DNA of 64,000 nucleotides, from positions 1,786 through 65,785 of the forward strand of contig JAFGHP010000020.1 of assembly GCA_016930055.1 (NCBI GenBank), in the 5' to 3' direction. Below the pieces are notes generated by a model. That model saw only the letters and a program-made list of their open reading frames with translations, did no database searches and had not been told where the DNA came from. This document shows, in pieces, positions 12,997-61,630 of the stretch. This DNA comes from Candidatus Bathyarchaeota archaeon. Lineage in GTDB: Archaea; Thermoproteota; Bathyarchaeia; TCS64. The translations under genes were made by a program, and so were the position numbers. Each line of letters opens with the position of its first letter. Position 1 is the first letter of the stretch.

Positions 12997-13087
12997 CGCG
13001 GTCGGCAGGATTCGAACCCGCGACCATAGGCTATCTTCCAGATACTGTTCGAAGGCCCATGCTCTATCCTGGCTGAGCCACGACCGC
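12997..13087 (-). tRNA. tRNA-Arg(UCG) with 16-nt intron at 37/38 (13033-13048)
   Basis: Cloverleaf GCGGTCG...CGACCGC-G; canonical bulge-helix-bulge (CUUC/GAAG). Confidence 0.93.
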
Positions 13088-29367: not shown

Positions 29368-29485
29368 CCCGCCTTAGCTCAATGGTAGAGCAATCGGCTG
29401 TAGTCTCCGCCCTGCGGGGCGAAGGCAATCAGACCTTTGAGCAGACACCGATGGGTTCCCGGTTCAAATCCTGGAGGCGGGACCA
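29368..29485 (+). tRNA. tRNA-Tyr(GUA) with 43-nt intron at 37/38 (29404-29446), encoded CCA
   Basis: CCCGCCT/AGGCGGG acceptor, ATCGG/CCGAT anticodon stem, BHB helix CUGU/GCAG. Confidence 0.92.
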
Positions 29486-47437: not shown

Positions 47438-47749
47438 TTATCTTCTAACAATTATGAAAATAATTATTAAAGCAATGACTGCAATTATTTGAAAAATTTT
47501 TATTAAGGTACCATTCCTTTCCCAAATTAATAATTTGCCATTTAATACTTCTAATGGGTTTTTCGAAATTAGTAAACGGTATAAATATTTAGCTTCTTCA
47601 ATTGTGTATAGTCTTCCATCAATTTCTAAATTACCTTTCTTAGTGATTCTGAATTTATGGCCTTTTATCCATACTTGGTCAATAAACCTAGTTTTTAGCC
47701 ATAATTCAAAATCCTCTATCTCAGGTTTTTCTTGATACATTTCTATCAC
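47438..47749 (-). CDS. Small C-terminally anchored membrane protein
   Basis: GTG start overlapping the upstream stop; C-terminal TM helix. Confidence 0.6.
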   Translation of the reverse strand: MIEMYQEKPEIEDFELWLKTRFIDQVWIKGHKFRITKKGNLEIDGRLYTIEEAKYLYRLLISKNPLEVLNGKLLIWERNGTLIKIFQIIAVIALIIIFIIVRR

Positions 47750-50502
47750 TTTATTTTTATACTAATATAATGGAGTTCGTTCACTCCTTTTTGCGTAGTT
47801 TTGAATACTCCATAATTTAGTATATTTTCGTTGCTTATCCATTTATATACATCGGGACCATAAATTTTAACCTTGTTTTCAATGAAATTTAATACTACGT
47901 TTTCCATCGTATCTTTTTGTTGAAGATTAATGTATGTTATATTAGAGACTTGTATGAATACTTCTGCATTAATTGCAGTTACGTTAATAGGTGTGTAACC
48001 ATTTTCTGTAAAAATGTTATAGGTATCATTGATTCTTTCTTCTTCACCTGGTTGTACGATTGGTGCTTGTTGAGTTAGACTATAAAATGCTACTGAGGAG
48101 TCAATACCTATTGCTACATCTCTAGTTAAAGCATCTACAACACCTATAAAGGGCATCTTTGAAATTATTCCTCCTCCAGAAGTTATGTAAACGGGTATAA
48201 AATAGTATAATTTTTGATTAATTCTATAGAGTAAAACATTGCCTAACTTATAGTTACTACCAAAAAGTGTAAGCTTTTCACGAACTTCGCTGTTTGTTTG
48301 GAATGCACTAACTGCTCCTGTTGGTCCAATTAATGATGATGTTCCATTGCCTGATGTTACTTTTAAAAGTTGTATCTCACCAAGTTTTGTACCACTTCCT
48401 ATAATATACATTCCTGCAAGGTTTTTTCCTGCTGAGCTAACATATTCAGCTAATTGGACTCCAACAAATAATACTTGATTATCTTCAGTTAATAGAATGT
48501 AGTTGACTTCTGTGCTAGGTGGTCTTTCGAAAAAGTCTGATCCTGAACGCCATACATATGGGTCTGACACATGATAGACAAAATCAATGTCGAGCTGTCC
48601 TTTTATGTCAAACATTACACTACCAAGTAATGCTTCAGGGTATCTTAATTGAGGTACTAACCATTCTGGTATGGATCCCCAATTTGAATAATAATTTTTG
48701 TAAAAGGTTGCTAGAAAACCATCATCTTCTCCTACAGTATAGCATGACATTTCGCCATCTTCCACATTAACTAAAATTACTGCAAAAAATCTGTAATAAT
48801 CACTTGCTACGAATCTTGAATTCATCTTATATTGTATGTAAACTTGTATCGCATAATATACAGTATTATTATTTGCTACAATATAGGGATCTGGATCAAT
48901 TTTTAATCCATCAATTAGAATTTTTTCAGCTCTATTCACAATATCTCTGTTATATAACATCTCAATTGATTCTTGTGGAGGTGCAAAAGCAAATCCGAGC
49001 TGTCCTTGAGCTAAAAACCACATCATTCGTTGCCATCCTGAGAGAGTGTAATCTGATTCTCCACGATAGGTGATGTTTTCAACTTCGTTGAAGCCTTTTA
49101 CTTTAATATAAACAGTATCAGATATTTCTTCACCATAATATATTTCAGGTTCTTTTGTCAAATGTAATGCTTCTGTGATCGGAACAGATTCGCCTGAATG
49201 ACTTTCAATAGCAAAAATATTCGATGCATGGGTATAAATTAGTTGATGGCTGATCCAGTCTTCACTTGGATATTTAATTGTAGTTGGTGAAATCCAGTAT
49301 TCTTTTCCGTAAACATATACTATATCTGGTGTAATAATTTTTAGCCAATTTACTGGTATTAAATTTACCATTCGAGTTAAAGCAGATTCATAATCCCATT
49401 GCCTAACTACGCTAAGTATTTTTGTTTCATTCCCAACCGGATAATCTTCTATTGGACGAGTTACAATTGAATCAATACCTGATGCCCATTGTGTAGCATC
49501 AATTTGTTTTGATGTAAAAGGATACCATTCATAGGCTACCCAATTGTTGTTCCAATTAAAATTATATAAAGCAATTATTCCAGCATTTATAGCAATAATC
49601 CCAATCAGAATAATAATTGAACCTGTTACAATAATATTTTGTCTTCTTAATTTAGTAAACTGAAGAGGTGTTACCCCTCGATCAAGCAAAATAGATATTA
49701 AAATGAAACTGAATAATAGTGTTAATGCAATATAATAGTAATGAGGGGTAGTTATGTCCATCCTCCAGTAAGGAGAATCAAATATAAATGCCAAGGTTAT
49801 TAAAGAGAAAATTATGAAGATATTTCTCATTCCAGTGGAATACTTTGCGTTTATAAATTCTTTAATTGATTTTAAAATTAATCTTAACGAAATTACCCCA
49901 AAAACAGTCAATATTAAAATGAATATTAGTCGATATTGTACTTCCATTGTTGGCATTAAATTAATTAATTCTCCACTTGTTACAGGTTGTATTGCTAATA
50001 AAAATATTCTAGGGACGAGAGACCAATCACCTATACCACTTATAATCATATAAAAAATATTCATAAAAGGACCAATAAACGGAATTCTCATAGAAGAAAC
50101 CATTAATGAAAAAGCTAAGAACCATTTAATTACTTGCCAAAATAACCATAGAAGCTTTTTTTGTTTTAACACAATAGTTGGCATTGAAAAATTTGTAGGA
50201 ATGCCTGAAGTTGCTGCTGTAATTTTTATATATTGTTGAATGCTGTTATAAACTTCGAATAAATCACTTTTACCTATTATTGGATTAATTGTTAATAAAG
50301 CCAAAAAGCCTGCAATGAGAAAAAGGTAATTATTATAAAAGACTGTTTGAAACCAATTTATATCTGCTTTTTTAAAATACATTGTTTGATTAATATTAAA
50401 ATCTAGATAAACATAAAGCCCGAAAAAAATTGTTATTAGTAATAAAATGGACAGTATTATCCAAATTTGATTACGTTTAATATACCCAGGTTTTTTAAAC
50501 AA
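47746..50502 (-). CDS. UPF0182-family large membrane protein
   Basis: Multi-TM N-terminal half; VRQWD, HQLIYTH, PEIYYGE, DPDPY, QLRYPE, GNVLLY. Confidence 0.8.
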   Translation of the reverse strand: MFKKPGYIKRNQIWIILSILLLITIFFGLYVYLDFNINQTMYFKKADINWFQTVFYNNYLFLIAGFLALLTINPIIGKSDLFEVYNSIQQYIKITAATSGIPTNFSMPTIVLKQKKLLWLFWQVIKWFLAFSLMVSSMRIPFIGPFMNIFYMIISGIGDWSLVPRIFLLAIQPVTSGELINLMPTMEVQYRLIFILILTVFGVISLRLILKSIKEFINAKYSTGMRNIFIIFSLITLAFIFDSPYWRMDITTPHYYYIALTLLFSFILISILLDRGVTPLQFTKLRRQNIIVTGSIIILIGIIAINAGIIALYNFNWNNNWVAYEWYPFTSKQIDATQWASGIDSIVTRPIEDYPVGNETKILSVVRQWDYESALTRMVNLIPVNWLKIITPDIVYVYGKEYWISPTTIKYPSEDWISHQLIYTHASNIFAIESHSGESVPITEALHLTKEPEIYYGEEISDTVYIKVKGFNEVENITYRGESDYTLSGWQRMMWFLAQGQLGFAFAPPQESIEMLYNRDIVNRAEKILIDGLKIDPDPYIVANNNTVYYAIQVYIQYKMNSRFVASDYYRFFAVILVNVEDGEMSCYTVGEDDGFLATFYKNYYSNWGSIPEWLVPQLRYPEALLGSVMFDIKGQLDIDFVYHVSDPYVWRSGSDFFERPPSTEVNYILLTEDNQVLFVGVQLAEYVSSAGKNLAGMYIIGSGTKLGEIQLLKVTSGNGTSSLIGPTGAVSAFQTNSEVREKLTLFGSNYKLGNVLLYRINQKLYYFIPVYITSGGGIISKMPFIGVVDALTRDVAIGIDSSVAFYSLTQQAPIVQPGEEERINDTYNIFTENGYTPINVTAINAEVFIQVSNITYINLQQKDTMENVVLNFIENKVKIYGPDVYKWISNENILNYGVFKTTQKGVNELHYISIKIK

Positions 50503-51994: not shown

Positions 51995-53641
51995 TTACTC
52001 GTCGTAATCGCTTGCTCCGGGTGCTCCACCGGGGCCTCCTGGGCCACCGGGACCGCCACTACTCTTTGCTGCTACTACGTCATCGATTCTCAGAATCATG
52101 CTAGTGACTTCTAGACCTGATTTGATTGCTTGTTTCTTTACAACCATTGGTTCTATTACTCCTTCGTTTAGCATGTTTTTTACTCCTCCTTCGAAGACGT
52201 TTACACCCATAACTATACCGTTTTCATTTTCGTGAGCTGCTTTCATTGATACTAATGTGTCCAATATGTCTAATCCTGCGTTTTCAGCGAGTGTTCTTGG
52301 TATAACTTCTAAAGCATCTGCAAAAGCTTCAATAGCTAATTGTTCTCTACCACCAATTTGACGTGCGTAACTTCTAACTTCTTTAGAGAGCTCCATCTCG
52401 ATAGCTCCGCCTCCTGGAACCATCTTAGGTACTTCAGCGACATCACTTACTACATATAATGCATCATTTAGGCTTCTTTCTGCTTCATCCATCATTCTTT
52501 CTAATCCTGCACGTATAAAGATTGCAACTGATGAGGGGTTTTTACATTCTTCTACAAAGATCATTTTTTCGTTGCCAATTTTTCTTTCTTCAACTAGTCC
52601 ACACACACCTAAATCGGAGGTTTTTAAGTCTGCTAAGTTATTAATCACTTTTCCACCCGTAGCTTTGGCTAGTTTTTCCATGTCGCTTTCTTTTAGACGG
52701 CGAGCTGCCAGCATACCACTTTTAGATAGGTAATGTTGAGCTACATCATCGATGCCTTTTTGACAGAATAATACGTTTGCTCCGGAACTTACGACGGTGT
52801 CAACCATCTTTTTTAGCATTAATGCTTCTTGGTCAAGGAAAGCTTTGATTCCTTCAGGGGTTCTTATTCTGATTTCTGCGTCAATTTCTGTTTTCTCGAT
52901 CTCTATTGCTGTATTTATTAAAGCAATTTTAGCATCTTTTATTTTTTTGGGCATTCCATCATGTACAACTTCTTTATCGACAATTATCCCGCTTATCAAT
53001 TTAGTTTCTTGAAGACTTTTTCCTTCTTTTTTGACTATTTGAATATTATCCACGTCTGCTATTGTTTGTCCGTCTCTTTTCTGAACGATTTGTTTTATTG
53101 CATCAACAACTATCTCTGAGAGGTGATCTCTATCAGTGGAGACTGTTTTACTCCTCATCGAGGTACTGGCTAATTTTATTAAGGTATCTCTATCATCCAA
53201 GTTAACGTCTAATGCTATCTTTTCTAGGTATTCCAATGCTTTATCGGCTGCTTTCTGATAACCAGAGATAATGATTGAAGGGTGGATCTCTTGTTCAAGA
53301 AGACCATCTGCTTTTTTGAGTAATTCTCCTGCAAAGATTACTGCGGTTGTTGTTCCATCTCCAACTTCTTTGTCTTGAGTTTTAGCGACTTCAATAACCA
53401 TTTTTGCTGCTGGGTGTTGTACATCGATCTCTTCAAGGACTTTTGCTCCATCGCTCGTTATTGTTATATCTCCTAAACTATCGATTAGCATTTTGTCCAT
53501 GCCACGTGGTCCTAAAGTGCTTTTTAATACTTCAGCAATTATTTGACCAGCCATCATGTTACTTCTACGAGCTTCTTTTCCTCTATTTCTTTTAGTGTCT
53601 TCTTTTAGGATTATTACCGGTTTTCCACTCATGCTTGCCAT
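51995..53641 (-). CDS. thsB: Thermosome subunit (second, beta-like)
   Basis: [19 protein letters not shown]; start MASMSGKP at 53641 with GAGGTGA SD; GGP-repeat tail. Confidence 0.95.
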
Positions 53642-53651
53642 TTTTTTCACC

Positions 53652-55310
53652 TCACATTGGGGGCATGCCACCAGGCATTCCACCCATTCCTCCCATTCCG
53701 CCATAGCCTCCTTCACCGCCAGGTGGTGTTTTTGGTTTTGTAGAAGCAATAATATCATCAATTTTTAGTAATAGTGTTGCTGCTTCAGTAGCTGATTTTA
53801 TTGCTTGTGCTTTAACTGCTTTAGGTTCGAGTATTCCTTTTTTCTCCATATCAATGATTTTTGATTCAAAAGCTTCAATTCCGGTCCATATTTCACCGTT
53901 AGCATGGCGACTCTGTAATTCAGCTAATGCATCTATTGGATCCATACCTGCGTTTTCTGATAAAGCGTTTGGAATTACTTCAAGTGCATCAGCAAAAACT
54001 GCTACTGCTAAACGTTCTCTGCCTTTTAATTTCTGAGCATAATCTCGGATTCTTAAAGCGATCTCTACCTCTGAAGCGCCTCCACCAGCAACAATCTTTG
54101 GCTCTTCAACAACGTCTTTTACTACACATAAAGCGTCGTGAAGGCTACGTTCTGCTTCATCTACTACTCTTTCTGATCCACCACGGATTAGTATGCTAAT
54201 GGCTTTTGGGTTCTTGCATCCTTCAACAAAAATTAATTTATCTGATCCAATCTTTCTCTCTTCGACTAATTCAGAAAAGCCACTATCGTTTGTAGATAAT
54301 TCTTCTATATTGGATACTACTTTAGCTCCTGTTGCCTTGGCTAAGGCTTCCATGTCACTTTTTTTAAGTCTTCTTGCAGCCATAATTCCTTCTCTAGCTA
54401 AAAAGTGTTGTACCATATCATCGATGCCTTTTTGACATAGAAGAACAGTTATTCCTGCCTCCTTAATTTTTGCAACCATATCTCTCATCATGTGTTCTTC
54501 TTCATCTAGGTATTGTTGCATTTGTTCTGGTGTTTCAATGCTAATTTTACTTGTAAACTCAGTTTTTTCGATTTCTAATGCGGCATCTAGTAAACCAATT
54601 TTAGCGTTTCTAACGAGTTTTGGCATGTCACTATGGACGACATCTTTGTCAATGATTAATCCATTTATCAGAGTAGTATCTGTTAAGCTACCGCCTGGCT
54701 TTTTTTCTACTTTAACCATGTCAAGGTCAACTTTCCAGCCTCCATTAATATCCTCAGCTACTTGTAATATCGCATTTGTTGCTAATTCTGCTAAATAGCC
54801 ACTATGTCCAGATACAAGTTTTGTTGACATCGTAGTTTTTGCTACTCTTTTTAGGGTCTCTTTATCTTTTGGTTCAACTTTTATTGCGATTTCGTCTAGT
54901 ATTTTTAATGCTTGCTCTTGTGCATCTCTAAAACCATCAATTATTATTGTTGGATGAACCTTTTTATCGATAAGATCTTCTGCTTTTCCTAGAAGTTCAC
55001 CAGTTAAAACAGCAACAGTTGTAGTACCATCTCCAACTTCAGAATCTTGTGTTTTGGAGACTTCCACCATCATTTTAGCTGCAGGATGTTGAATATCCAT
55101 CTCTTTCAACATTGTAGCACCATCATTTGTGATAGTTACATCACCAAAACTATCAACAAGCATTTTATCCATGCCTTTTGGGCCTAAGCTTGTTTTGATT
55201 GCTTCAGAGACTATTCTTGCAGCCATAATGTTGTTGCTTCTGGCATCAGACCCTCTAGAACGCTCAGTACCTTCTTTTAAAATATATATTTGTTGATTTG
55301 GGTCACTCAT
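53652..55310 (-). CDS. thsA: Thermosome subunit (first, alpha-like)
   Basis: [19 protein letters not shown]; GGM-repeat tail. Confidence 0.95.
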
Positions 55311-56267: not shown

Positions 56268-56720
56268 CTATATAATGTCAAAAGAAACCTCTAATAATTT
56301 TTTATTTAATCTAAATCTACTTTTTTGAATTTTTATTTCAACAATTTCTCCTGTTTTTTGCGTGTGTTTTTTATTACAAGTATTAATATTCCAACCAGGA
56401 ATTTCAACAATTTTTAATGTAGTTAATCCTGGGGGTAGAGGAAAAAGATCATATATTATGTCTCCCCATTTTTTCTCTGCTTCAATTTTTGATAATTCAT
56501 GAATTTTTATTTTGATATCCTGTTTAATAATTTCATTTGAAGTTTTTTCGATAAGGTTAATTTCTTCATCAGTTGGTTTCCTATCAAATTGCACAGCAAT
56601 TCCACCATGTAAACCAGAAGCATAAACACTTGAAGTCCATTTAGCTCCAAGAATTTTTTGTATAGCACCTTTAACTATATGTATTGCAGTATGAGTTCGA
56701 ATCTCGATATCTGAAGACAT
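56268..56720 (-). CDS. alaXS: AlaX-S trans-editing protein (Ser-tRNA(Ala) deacylase)
   Basis: HTAIH (HxxxH) and CNKKH (CxxxH) Zn motifs; 150 aa. Confidence 0.88.
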   Translation of the reverse strand: MSSDIEIRTHTAIHIVKGAIQKILGAKWTSSVYASGLHGGIAVQFDRKPTDEEINLIEKTSNEIIKQDIKIKIHELSKIEAEKKWGDIIYDLFPLPPGLTTLKIVEIPGWNINTCNKKHTQKTGEIVEIKIQKSRFRLNKKLLEVSFDII

Positions 56721-56810
56721 ATTATTCTACATAGGATGTTCTCTAACTAATATATTTAATTTTTATTTTTATAGAAATTTAGATGTTTAAATTTTTTTTA
56801 TAAAATGAAA

Positions 56811-57018
56811 GTGCCCAAGTGTAGATTGCCATAAGCGATTTTCAGGTCTGTTTTACACCGTTCCCGGGTACGTCACGCGTGAACATGTAGTCGCTTGAGA
56901 AGTGTAGTTTTCTCAGCGAGCCTAAGCCTACCGAGTTCTTTACAGCCCACTCCTCATGGCTCTGCGATGCATAAGATCTTACGCTGTTTAGATCTTTAGT
57001 TCGCTCCCACTTGGGCAA
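56811..57018 (-). ncRNA. Unassigned ~205-nt structured non-coding RNA
   Basis: About 49% GC island; 10-bp terminal helix, several internal hairpins, GGAA tetraloop; TATA-like element upstream, U-rich tract downstream. Confidence 0.7.
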
Positions 57019-57314
57019 TCAATACACCTACTTATGTTCTATTAAGTAGTTATGTTTCACGAATAAATTATTTGGCTATTTTCTAAACTATTAATTCAAT
57101 AGATTTTTGTAATAAAATAGTTAATAATATCTCTATTATTGGAGACAATGTATTCTTGGTGTGTTTATTGAAAAAAGATAGTCTGTAGATTAGATATTTA
57201 ATATATTCATTTTATGTTAGTACCAAAAAATGAGGATGATATAGCGTTAATAAAAAAATTATTTTGATTAGGAAGCTAAACCTTAAAACCATATAATAAG
57301 GAGCTATAAAACAT

Positions 57315-57866
57315 ATGTTGAATCGCGATGAAGCAATAACTCTAGTCCGACAATATGTCACAAATGATAATCTAATAAAACATATGATTTCAGTTGGCGC
57401 AATTATGAAGGGATTAGCATTACATTTTAACGAAGATGCTGAGCTTTGGGAAGCTGTAGGTATTCTTCACGATATTGATTATGAGAAGGTTGGGCAAGAT
57501 TGGGAAAAACATGGTGCTATTTCAGCTGAGATGGTTAAAGACTTATTACCTGAAAAAGGATTGTATGCGATTAGAGCTCATAATGAACAAACGGGTTATA
57601 GTCCTAAAAATTTAATAGATATCTGTCTTTATTCAGCTGATGCTTTATCAGGTTTAGTTATAGCAATGGGATTAATGTTACCAGATAAAAAATTGGCTAA
57701 TGTTAAAGTATCAAGTCTCGTTAAGAGAATGAAAGATAAAAGTTTTGCTAGAGGAGTAAGTAGAGAGAATATAAATAGATGTTCTGAAGTTGGTTTAGAA
57801 CTACAAGACTTCCTTCAAATTGGTTTGACATCTATGAAAGCAATTGCTTCAGAAATTGGTATGTAA
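57315..57866 (+). CDS. HDIG/HD-domain metal-dependent phosphohydrolase
   Basis: IKHM, ILHDIDYE, KHG, AIRAHN, ADALSG, DKSFARGVSRE. Confidence 0.9.
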   Translation: MLNRDEAITLVRQYVTNDNLIKHMISVGAIMKGLALHFNEDAELWEAVGILHDIDYEKVGQDWEKHGAISAEMVKDLLPEKGLYAIRAHNEQTGYSPKNLIDICLYSADALSGLVIAMGLMLPDKKLANVKVSSLVKRMKDKSFARGVSRENINRCSEVGLELQDFLQIGLTSMKAIASEIGM

Positions 57867-60181: not shown

Positions 60182-61630
60182 ATGACATATACTGTAGAAA
60201 AAATTTCTAATCTAATATGGGAGGTCCCTAAAAATTCAGTACCTGGGATGAAGGTTCCAGCCAGAATTTATGCTGATGAAGACCTCTTATCTGCAATGAA
60301 AGAAGATGCAACCTTAACTCAAGCTGTAAATCTTACTCAGCTTCCGGGTTTACAAAAATATGGCATCACTTTACCTGATGGTCATCAAGGTTATGGTTTT
60401 CCAATTGGCGGAGTTGCTGCATTTGATATTGATGAAGGTATAATTACTCCTGGAGGAGTGGGATATGACATTAATTGTGGCGTACTTTTAATGCGTAGTG
60501 ATCTGAAATATAAAGATATTAAACCAAAAATTGATGAATTAATTGACAGAATTTTTAATACGGTTCCATGTGGGGTAGGTGTCGGAAGCAAAATTAGGTT
60601 AAGTAACCAAGAATTAGATAGAGCAGTTACTGGTGGGGTAAGCTGGGCTATTTCTAAAGGGTATGGATGGTCAGGTGACGAAAAACATATGGAAGAAAGT
60701 GGATGCATGAAAGAAGCAAATCCAGATGTTGTAAGTGGAAGAGCAAAAAGTCGTGGTTCATCTCAACTTGGTACACTTGGTGCTGGAAACCATTTTCTTG
60801 AAGTTGCTAGGGTCCAAGAGATTTTTGATTCTAAAGTAGCGAAAGTATTCGGAATAACGGAACCAGATCAAGTAGTTTGTTGGATACATACAGGTAGTAG
60901 GGGTTATGGTCATCAAATTGCTACTGATTATATTAGGGTAATGGAACGAGCAACATCAAAATATAAAATTAGTCTACCTGATCGAGAACTTGCTTGTGCC
61001 CCTATTAAAAGTAGGGAAGCTGAAGATTATTATCAAGCAATGGCTTGCGCAGTAAATTGGGCTTTCATAAATAGACATGTAATTCTTCACCAAGTTAGGC
61101 AAGCTTTTGAACAGACATTCAATCAAAAAGCGGATCGTATGGGTTTAGATTTAGTTTATAGTATGACACATAATACAGCTAAACGTGAAGAGCATATTAT
61201 TGATGGAAAAAGAAAAATGACTGTAGTACATAGAAAAGGGGCAAGCCGTGCTTTTGGACCAGGTAGAGACGACTTACCAGATGATTATAAGAGTACTGGG
61301 CAACCCGTGTTGTTAGTAGGAACAATGGGCACCGCAAGTTATTTGCTTAAAGGAACTGAGAAAGGAGAAGAAATTAGTTTCGCTTCAACAGCACATGGTG
61401 CAGGTAGAGTTCTTTCGCGAGCTGGTGCACGTAGAGCATGGACTGCTAATGAGATTATAGCTGATTTAAAGAAGAAAGGCATAGTTATTCGTGCAGCTTC
61501 AGGGAGAGTAGTAGAAGAAGAAAGCCCAGATAGTTATAAAGACATTCATAAAGTAGCTGATGTCAGTCACAGATTAGGATTAGCAGAAAAAGTAATGATG
61601 TCTGTTCCTGTTGCTGTTGCCAAAGGATAA
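60182..61630 (+). CDS. rtcB: RNA-splicing ligase RtcB
   Basis: LPDGHQGYGFPIGG, GYDINCG, GAGNHFLE, HTGSRG, HRKGA, HGAGR, EESPDSYK. Confidence 0.97.
   Translation: MTYTVEKISNLIWEVPKNSVPGMKVPARIYADEDLLSAMKEDATLTQAVNLTQLPGLQKYGITLPDGHQGYGFPIGGVAAFDIDEGIITPGGVGYDINCGVLLMRSDLKYKDIKPKIDELIDRIFNTVPCGVGVGSKIRLSNQELDRAVTGGVSWAISKGYGWSGDEKHMEESGCMKEANPDVVSGRAKSRGSSQLGTLGAGNHFLEVARVQEIFDSKVAKVFGITEPDQVVCWIHTGSRGYGHQIATDYIRVMERATSKYKISLPDRELACAPIKSREAEDYYQAMACAVNWAFINRHVILHQVRQAFEQTFNQKADRMGLDLVYSMTHNTAKREEHIIDGKRKMTVVHRKGASRAFGPGRDDLPDDYKSTGQPVLLVGTMGTASYLLKGTEKGEEISFASTAHGAGRVLSRAGARRAWTANEIIADLKKKGIVIRAASGRVVEEESPDSYKDIHKVADVSHRLGLAEKVMMSVPVAVAKG

Follow-up and report, generated by a model that had tools for sequence, protein, structure and literature searches.

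An unrecognised, highly structured RNA is encoded on the minus strand of a 64,000-nucleotide (nt) stretch of contig JAFGHP010000020.1 (assembly GCA_016930055.1, positions 1,786 to 65,785) from a Candidatus Bathyarchaeota archaeon. This whole stretch is called the window here, and all coordinates are window positions. Bathyarchaeia are a major uncultivated archaeal group in sediments and soils. A preliminary description, made from the letters of the window, had proposed a stand-alone structured non-coding RNA (ncRNA), possibly of a new class, at this site; the proposal is borne out by the lack of any Rfam match, by covariation and by conserved flanks. The locus very probably represents a genuine new family of structured ncRNAs. 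The best explanation overall, held at slightly better than even strength, is an undescribed ncRNA family with its own transcription unit, whose product would be a stable RNA that acts in trans. The genome of the window, labelled G000 (G, C and L numbers are labels for genomes, contigs and loci), is 94% complete. The element itself is as follows:

56812-57017, minus strand: structured ncRNA core in its long form (206 nt), bounded by the two strands of helix P1.

The RNA coincides with the GC-rich island pointed out in the preliminary description, with a GC fraction of 0.46-0.51 at 56800-56999 versus 0.18-0.22 in the flanking spacer DNA. The island is flanked by a gene for a 150-residue protein (56268-56720, minus strand) and by an HD-domain gene (57315-57866, plus strand). 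There is almost no chance that it is a protein-coding gene or an accidental GC island. Such a reading could draw on the sole open reading frame (ORF) within the island, which lies on the RNA strand and encodes 58 amino acids from a TTG start, and on the antisense ORFs of 71-138 amino acids that overlap many of the GC-rich copies in other genomes. However, the two closest orthologs differ by 1-nt insertions or deletions inside the 58-residue ORF, insert lengths between the size classes described below are not all multiples of three, and substitutions track base-pair covariation. Coding is rejected on these indels and substitutions, and the island is without a credible ORF.

Folding of the single sequence gives a modest gain over shuffled sequences (z = -2.96 and -3.12 on the two strands), so that the case for structure rests on comparative data. 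Two covariance models were used: R1, for which 20 sequences were combined with a structure set by hand, and R2, a broader model. The R1 match at the locus spans 56807-57019 with 139.7 bits and E 1.9e-27 (cmsearch). In a model alignment of 40 sequences, 90.3% of the cells are paired and 34 of the 55 pairs show compensatory changes, in which both sides have changed. None of 500 column shuffles reaches these values, and sliding the partners by 1-3 columns lowers pairing to 32-40%. As this alignment was fitted to the structure, three checks that are independent of it were added. Here, RNAalifold applied to a MAFFT alignment of the first 20 sequences recovered P1-P6, with 13 of 39 pairs compensatory. 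A structure-blind mutual-information scan of all column pairs returned proposed pairs, or the pseudoknot described below, in every one of its top 16 places. Finally, a separate metagenome set of 33 distinct sequences is 87.6% paired, with 30 of 51 pairs compensatory; since the set was chosen by three invariant motifs, only the helices count as independent there. The covariation on which the original proposal had been made to depend is present and strong. The strand is fixed by G-U pairs, again as proposed: one pair is G-U in 40 of 40 sequences, another is UG in 18 and UA in 16, and the many G-U pairs would become A-C mismatches on the plus strand, making the minus strand the sense strand.

Members of the family come in three size classes: a core form of ~136-151 nt, present in all five genera that carry the RNA, a form of ~175 nt and a form of 205-215 nt. 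The latter two are confined to the genus of the window and both gain an additional arm, P7; the window copy is of the long form. The shared core of ~140 nt consists of P1, which opens into a three-way junction, and two arms, one formed by P2-P3 and the other by P8-P4-P5-P6. Short, purine-rich strands join these helices, namely GGA, AGA and AAUCUA in the copy of the window, and P8 encloses both the P4-P5-P6 arm and the P7 arm. The elements of the window copy are:

57008-57017 / 56812-56821, minus strand: terminal helix P1, 5' strand UGCCCAAGUG paired with CACUUGGGCA; checked base by base, three pairs covarying between A-U and G-C.
56964-57004, minus strand: P2-P3 arm, with P2 GCGA/UCGC at 57001-57004 / 56964-56967.
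56990-56996 / 56973-56979, minus strand: P3 AAGAUCU/AGAUCUU; all 5 P3 pairs with compensatory changes.
56983-56987, minus strand: 5' half of the pseudoknot, ACAGC, in the 10-nt P3 loop (RNAalifold, covariation).
56828-56960, minus strand: helix P8, GCCAU/AUGGC at 56956-56960 / 56828-56832; compensatory changes in 3 of 4 pairs.
56897-56955, minus strand: P4-P5-P6 arm (base-by-base check and covariation).
56948-56955 / 56897-56904, minus strand: P4 GAGGAGUG/CACUUCUC; 6 of 7 pairs compensatory.
56942-56946, minus strand: 3' half of the pseudoknot, GCUGU, in the P4/P5 internal loop GGCUGUAA (RNAalifold, covariation).
56938-56939 / 56906-56907, minus strand: P5 AG/CU; 3 of 3 pairs compensatory.
56926-56935 / 56912-56921, minus strand: P6; 7 of 10 pairs compensatory.
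56919-56928, minus strand: P6 apex GGCUUAGGCU (family consensus GGCUUWGGCU); three closing pairs invariant in 40 of 40 sequences.
56833-56896, minus strand: accessory P7 arm, absent from the ~140-nt core form and seen only in the same-genus ~175-nt and 205-215-nt forms.
56891-56896 / 56833-56838, minus strand: base of P7 (P7a), AAGCGA/UCGCUU, checked base by base.
56874-56881, minus strand: palindrome CACGCGUG in P7.
56854-56870, minus strand: P7 hairpin with a GGAA tetraloop (GNRA-type).

Several of these helices had been drawn from the single sequence. The 10-base-pair (bp) terminal helix is exact base by base and covaries, the AAGAUCU/AGAUCUU hairpin is present as P3, and the UACCCG-GGAA-CGGUGUA hairpin with its GNRA loop lies inside P7, an arm in which CACGCGUGACGU is identical in all seven long-form copies aligned. 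The GCCAU/AUGGC pairing had been offered as a possible pseudoknot; it does pair and covary, but as the nested helix P8. Two further proposals failed. The long-range helix GAGCGA/UCGCUU is missing from all short forms and from the nearest ortholog; instead, its GCGA pairs locally with UCGC in P2 and its UCGCUU with AAGCGA in P7a. The hairpin UCGCUGAGAA/UUCUCAAGCGA is favoured by the single-sequence fold, yet it is not conserved: as an alternative fold it is 50.2% paired across the family versus 39-56% in slid controls, no better than these, and its formation is incompatible with P4, P6 and P7a, which covary.

An unexpected contact emerged when RNAalifold was run on a structure-blind MAFFT alignment of 26 short forms, in which bases of the P3 loop pair with bases of the P4/P5 internal loop. 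In the 40-sequence alignment each of the five pseudoknot pairs is formed in 37-40 of the sequences, the second being AU in 22, CG in 14, GU in 2 and UG in 1, and the two positions that flank the helix are unpaired. Four versions occur, GAAGC/GCUUC, GCAGC/GCUGC, GAGGC/GCCUC and, in the window, ACAGC/GCUGU. Consistent with this, the pseudoknot ranks 11th in the mutual-information scan, and in the metagenome set it is 99.4% paired with 2 of 5 pairs compensatory. As covariance models cannot represent pseudoknots, the signal is not an artefact of alignment. In the resulting structural model the 5-bp loop/internal-loop pseudoknot clamps the two arms side by side, which accounts for the conservation of both the P3 loop and the internal loop. 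The invariant parts that then lack an explanation are the junction purines and the apex GGCUUWGGCU. The pairs adjoining the apex vary freely while its closing pairs stay fixed (in the metagenome set, which was picked using the apex motif, its invariance is not independent), and the mutual-information scan found no further tertiary contact for it.

To place the RNA among known families, Rfam release 15 (4227 families) was used. A scan of the whole window at gathering threshold returned three transfer RNAs (tRNAs) elsewhere and nothing at the locus, 56700-57150 scanned at E<=10 gave a single chance match of 12.8 bits, and ten diverse homolog loci at E<=5 gave no family match on the RNA; the cmscan check suggested at the outset thus yields no significant family. 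The hallmarks reported as missing are indeed missing. Archaeal RNase P RNA (RF00373) has no match at the locus at gathering threshold or at E<=10, and the same holds for a match to archaeal signal recognition particle (SRP) RNA (RF01857); canonical copies of both are found elsewhere in the genome, the former full-length on contig C61 (205.4 bits) and the latter on contig C103 (129.7 bits). A tRNA or tRNA-like gene is excluded, as ARAGORN finds 0 genes in 56600-57250 and the Rfam tRNA matches are all elsewhere in the window. Box C/D and H/ACA guide RNAs, by the definitions commonly given for them, are likewise excluded, with no Rfam match at E<=10 and no conserved box-like motif by eye in the 40-sequence alignment. 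Self-cleaving ribozymes in Rfam (hammerhead, twister, pistol, hatchet, HDV-like) show no match in the window region at E<=10 or at the ten homolog loci at E<=5. A Y RNA of a Ro60 ribonucleoprotein (RNP) was rejected on 0 matches to PF05731 (TROVE) in G000.

Mimicry of, or antisense pairing to, ribosomal RNA (rRNA) was also rejected: short-word BLAST against the organism's own 16S and partial 23S rRNA gave matches of 7-11 nt only, with E>=0.55. A loose cluster of sense matches in one 23S region is not collinear, the U variant of the apex does not share it, and it was treated as chance. No title or abstract describing such an RNA in Bathyarchaeia was found in a literature search, and the available part of one preprint (bioRxiv 10.64898/2026.10.21.760802) makes no mention of Bathyarchaeia. 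As far as Rfam release 15 and this search show, the class appears to be undescribed so far.

Several known RNAs offer partial likenesses. Archaeal RNase P RNA and SRP (7S) RNA are also GC-rich structured islands in AT-rich genomes, independent genes and often beside tRNA genes; they differ in that the genome has its canonical copies of each elsewhere. The orphan bacterial ncRNAs raiA, OLE, ROOL and GOLLD in Rfam share with the present family a stand-alone gene, a conserved complex fold, discovery by comparative genomics and, in some genomes, multi-copy or mobile contexts, whereas this family is archaeal, shorter (~140-215 nt), limited to one family-level clade and without an Rfam match.

The distribution of the RNA is narrow. 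Spread was assessed on samples of genomes, and each negative below means not found in the genomes searched. BLASTN detected homologs in 14 of 17 other genomes of the window's genus and in none of 24 genomes beyond that genus. When GTDB species genomes were scanned for an exact pattern, 51 matches resulted, of which 32 were confirmed by BLASTN, all in Candidatus Bathyarchaeota/Bathyarchaeia records; the remaining 19, mostly in bacterial records, were not confirmed by it. With R1, matches were found in 51 of the 71 genomes of one GTDB family of Bathyarchaeia, distributed over genera g1 (16/17), g5 (4/5), g6 (1/1), g8 (28/32) and g20 (1/1); the genera without a match were g21 (0/5), g23 (0/4) and g2, g3, g4, g7 and g22 (each 0/1). 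A class-wide sample had the RNA in 16 of 27 genomes of the family and in 0 of 123 genomes from ~30 other families, and a sample of the phylum searched with R2 had it in 0 of 150. High-quality genomes of the sister genera g21, g23 and g2, searched with R2 under lax filters, gave 0 of 5. In eight RNA-less genomes, the 3.5 kb upstream of alaX, the gene introduced below, gave a best R2 score of 9.6 bits with filters off.

Among the metagenome pattern matches listed, 36 of 80 were confirmed; of five pattern matches in viral contigs, from two scans, R2 confirmed none. G000 has exactly one copy, even at E<=10, and its relatives have 1-5. The family thus appears confined, among the genomes searched, to a sub-clade of five genera within one GTDB family. 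Its absence from most sampled Bathyarchaeia means that it is not a universal RNA. Weak matches (28-40 bits) of ~139 nt also occur, about one per genome in the genus and none in G000 (G017:C154, G011:C9, G007:C33, G005:C295, G012:C6, G010:C206, G008:C67, G002:C59, G015:C23), and they may be a more divergent paralog class.

The regions that flank the RNA suggest that it is a gene of its own. The relevant elements are:

57039-57062, minus strand: putative archaeal promoter, with the TATA-like CUUAAUAG at 57039-57046 preceded by the purine-rich CGUGAAACAUAAC, which resembles a B recognition element (BRE).
56797-56811, minus strand: 3' tail with its T-run, CUUUCAUUUUAUAAA, directly followed by an A-run.
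57102-57130, minus strand: conserved upstream motif AUAUUAUUAAC...UUACAAAAAUC, ~85-115 nt before the RNA.

The TATA-like box CUUAAUAG, which the preliminary description had picked out, lies 22 nt before the first G of P1, and homologs have A/T-rich boxes at the same distance. Of 38 homologous loci scored, 31 contain such a box, with a median centre 25 nt before P1 and with GUGAAAC/ACAACGCAG-like motifs ahead of it, and the region of CUUAAUAG may be inferred to function as a promoter. At the other end, the tail reads CAC-YUY followed by a U-run across the 40-sequence alignment, and the U-rich tract noted directly after the RNA is confirmed as a T-run, a probable termination site. A run of at least four T starting at -3 to +3 of the tail occurs in 25 of 29 chromosomal (non-dispersed) copies scored. 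The dispersed copies of the same genus have a T-run there in 0 of 9; one has a run 29 nt further on and most carry ATTCTT. Upstream, CRTTMTTAAC...ACAATAA-like motifs stand at the same distance in most of 31 loci (by eye), far outside the core promoter, are partly palindromic (ATTATT...AATAAT type) and could be a regulator site or an insulating terminator. As the promoter-like and T-run flanks accompany the RNA into different genomic contexts, it looks like an autonomous RNA gene. Each copy would be its own transcription unit, transcribed alone from a BRE/TATA element ~25 nt upstream up to the T-run just after P1.

The most consistent neighbour of the RNA is a gene for an AlaX-type tRNA-editing protein:

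56268-56720, minus strand: alaX-type gene, 150 amino acids, 87 nt downstream of the RNA on the same strand; conserved neighbour.

The assignment as AlaX-type, made from the start, is supported by orthologs that match the tRNA_SAD domain. The 150-residue protein also matches open frames of ~590-990 amino acids at ~25-38% identity, presumed synthetases carrying an editing domain. A manual cross-match places an RNA copy ahead of alaX, at a distance of 87-4645 nt and in the same orientation, in 32 genomes (15 of g1, 16 of g8 and 1 of g20). With a further copy in G014, truncated where its contig ends, the linkage extends to 33 of the 51 RNA-bearing genomes, and the same arrangement is seen in 9 of 36 metagenome contigs. 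On the other side, a divergently oriented tRNA-Arg(CCU) gene is found 278-305 nt from the RNA, upstream of it, at 10 of 31 loci and on 8 of 36 metagenome contigs. Another paralog group is 0.8-1.4 kb from tRNA-Gly(CCC), and other paralogs precede gamma-glutamyltranspeptidase, an SPFH protein or unknown genes, with no single regulon. Two other neighbours named in the preliminary description are where it put them, the HD-domain gene at 57315-57866 (plus strand), matched only in the closest relative among 25 loci compared, and RtcB at 60182-61630, 3.2 kb away. At three metagenome loci (L124 391-486, L125 2651-2746 and L153) ARAGORN reports a 96-nt 'tRNA-???' with a two-letter anticodon adjoining tRNA-Gly(CCC); the related contig L184 has tRNA-Lys(UUU) at that position, and the 96-nt call is probably a mis-parsed, intron-bearing tRNA-Lys.

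The proximity of alaX raises the question of a cis-regulatory leader, that is, a riboswitch-like aptamer whose ligand controls read-through past the T-run into the downstream gene, here alaX. Aptamers are typically designed like this RNA, around a three-way junction that has conserved purines and arms fastened to each other by a tertiary contact away from it. Moreover, where the RNA is upstream of alaX it is always on the same strand (33 genomes), and the ORF that follows most closely in genus g8, at 8-150 nt, usually has the orientation of the RNA. Same-strand genes are common downstream of the RNA in general, and a T-run follows P1. Against this reading, the downstream genes are functionally unrelated (AlaX, gamma-glutamyltranspeptidase, SPFH protein, unknowns). 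In addition, an opposite-strand Yip1-family gene stands between the RNA and alaX in L017, L025, L109 and L111, all from the same genus, the distance to alaX reaches 4.6 kb, and 9 of the 16 dispersed same-genus copies are without a shared downstream gene. In the window, the region before alaX is A/T-rich enough that it may hold a promoter of its own. A riboswitch is therefore judged an unlikely reading.

Junction-type riboswitch aptamers and the hammerhead ribozyme are built like this family, around a three-way junction that is closed by P1, is joined by conserved purine-rich strands and carries two arms held together through a loop contact at a distance; unlike them, the family has no sequence or covariance-model similarity to either, no coherent downstream genes, and a putative promoter and terminator of its own. 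A ribozyme, whether it cleaves itself or has another RNA as its substrate (a tRNA precursor, for instance), would fit the compact pseudoknotted fold, the optional peripheral P7 with its GNRA-type loop around a conserved core, as is often seen in ribozymes, and the tRNA genes nearby. It remains an unlikely choice: no Rfam ribozyme family matches, the joining strands of ~3, 3-4 and 5-6 nt misfit the hammerhead layout as generally known, and a cleavage site is not recognisable from the sequence.

A base-pairing regulatory small RNA (sRNA), with conserved single-stranded seeds directed at messenger RNA or stable-RNA targets, would agree with the stand-alone gene, its putative promoter and terminator, and the invariant apex GGCUUWGGCU. 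Here, the most conserved loop, that of P3, and the internal loop pair with each other and so are not free seeds, and the elaborate tertiary fold is unusual for seed-type sRNAs. Extended complementarity to the organism's own 16S or partial 23S rRNA was not found, the best antisense match being 10 nt with E 0.55. The apex in its sense forms, GGCTTAGGCT or GGCTTTGGCT, recurs at only three other sites in G000, which show no pattern, complementary sites not having been searched genome-wide. Seed-type regulation is accordingly given little weight.

A trans-acting RNA is ranked first, as it fits a gene with a putative terminator of its own, downstream genes that form no coherent regulon, loops that are not free to act as seeds, and the neighbourhood of tRNA genes. 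Complex pseudoknotted RNAs of 140-215 nt with such covariation are usually ribozymes, riboswitches or RNP cores. In the proposed mechanism the product would be a stable trans-acting RNA that either forms the RNA component of an RNP or, through its fold, binds a conserved partner (protein, small ligand or RNA), with the contact made through the junction and the invariant apex. That the family works in trans as such a partner-binding or RNP RNA is advanced tentatively, at somewhat less than even strength. The recurring neighbours (alaX downstream; tRNA-Arg(CCU) or tRNA-Gly upstream) point, as a leading guess, to a pathway of quality control in translation or of tRNA; the role in translation or RNA quality control that the preliminary description had hinted at is likewise conjectural. 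A more specific version, namely a new archaeal trans-acting functional RNA (a ribozyme or a stand-alone ligand- or tRNA-sensing RNA) engaged in tRNA/aminoacylation quality control with AlaX and the neighbouring tRNA genes, and in one genus also copied into mobile cassette-like units, is regarded as improbable in that full form.

Several observations weigh against the best explanation as a whole. The junction with its clamped arms would equally suit a riboswitch aptamer or a ribozyme. The sequences in the alignment are related, so the shuffle statistics overstate significance. Transcription, the RNA ends and stability are all inferred from sequence features; no RNA sequencing run is listed as containing the stretch, a result that is neutral on expression. 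The narrow distribution argues against a core housekeeping role, and G006, a genome of the same genus that is 88% complete, has alaX and no detectable RNA, which suggests that the RNA may be dispensable. Further, alaX is present in 69 of the 71 genomes of the family, including all genera without the RNA, and nothing RNA-like was found upstream of alaX in those genera; as alaX occurs where the RNA does not, the linkage may be inherited gene order and not function. The opposite-strand Yip1-family gene often intervenes between the two, and the Ro60/TROVE gene, a candidate partner, was not found in G000.

The extra copies in relatives of the window genome bring in a different possibility, that the RNA belongs to a mobile element as a miniature inverted-repeat transposable element (MITE), the guide RNA of a TnpB-type transposon or the passenger of an integron-like cassette. 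Relatives carry up to five copies, and the dispersed copies of ~175 nt and 205-215 nt have ~150 nt of sequence upstream of them in common. A ~100-nt repeat, made of the core CTTATCCT-5 nt-CCACCTGAT followed by a short hairpin, bounds both sides of 3 and one side of 4 of the 16 dispersed same-genus copies. It is found in clusters of uniform orientation, at spacings of 0.1-3.5 kb, that delimit single genes with assorted functions, such as decarboxylases, hydrolases and aminotransferases (G008:C3 (L079), G016:C28 (L080), G016:C20, G012:C1; none in the window). Counts of the repeat at <=2 mismatches are 75 in G008, 35 in G016, 15 in G012, 9 in G015 and 0 in G000. Cassette arrays are described for archaeal integrons (PMC9668308), and the repeat clusters resemble such arrays. 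The contig pieces examined showed no integrase, no attC model having been run. In addition, a TnpB-type gene (OrfB_IS605 plus a Cas12f1-like TNB domain; G016:C20, L018 2027-3166, minus strand) shares its strand with a long-form copy of the RNA and ends 360 nt before it.

Nevertheless, a mobile-element RNA is very improbable as the nature of the family. G000 holds a single copy and none of the ~100-nt repeat, one copy per genome is syntenic across three genera, tnpB is near only 1 of the 16 dispersed copies, a variable guide-like end segment is absent, and none of the five viral-contig matches was confirmed. A MITE, the identity that the preliminary description had set against its own proposal, is rejected on the single copy in G000 at E<=10 and on the synteny across genera of the copy upstream of alaX; the 16 dispersed copies lack terminal inverted repeats and target-site duplications by eye, no formal repeat search having been made. 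A TnpB/IscB guide RNA is likewise rejected, since the window neighbours are alaX and the HD gene and both ends of the RNA are locked in P1 with no hypervariable end. Such guide RNAs resemble the family as structured RNAs of 100-250 nt with several copies in some relatives, one of them near tnpB; they differ in that the family has its ends closed by P1 and no variable guide, with no nuclease gene beside the window copy or 15 of the 16 dispersed copies. With one copy and none of the repeat in the window genome, mobility is a side story and not the nature of the gene in the window. Separately, alternating-GC runs of 8-12 nt are found where RNA copies or the cassette repeat break off (L022, L016, L010, L015, L009, L013); these could mark a site of recombination or a target site, or could have arisen as artefacts when repeats were assembled.

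Some other features of the window were recorded. Two adjacent thermosome (Cpn60/TCP-1) paralogs, at 51995-53761 and 53652-55310 on the minus strand, are listed as ORFs that overlap by ~110 nt, so the start called for the upstream one is probably too long. An ORF of 918 amino acids (47746-50502, minus strand) matches no Pfam family at E<=0.001. By Rfam alignment, the anticodon-arm regions of the tRNA genes at 12997-13087 (minus strand) and 29368-29482 (plus strand) contain insertions of 18 and 46 nt, which are probably introns. tRNA introns are common in this phylum.

Archaea are known to have very few classes of such complex RNA. The present one appears new as an RNA class by sequence and structure, and its significance is tempered by the narrow taxonomic range and the uncultured hosts. 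For this family there are now a structure, a covariance model and a collection of more than 100 sequences, all drawn from Bathyarchaeia that are uncultivated. The extra copies in cassette-like units of one genus would be unusual, as an ncRNA gene spreading as a mobile cassette. Finally, the recurrent placement of the RNA by an aminoacyl-tRNA editing gene and tRNA genes provides a testable link to translation quality control.

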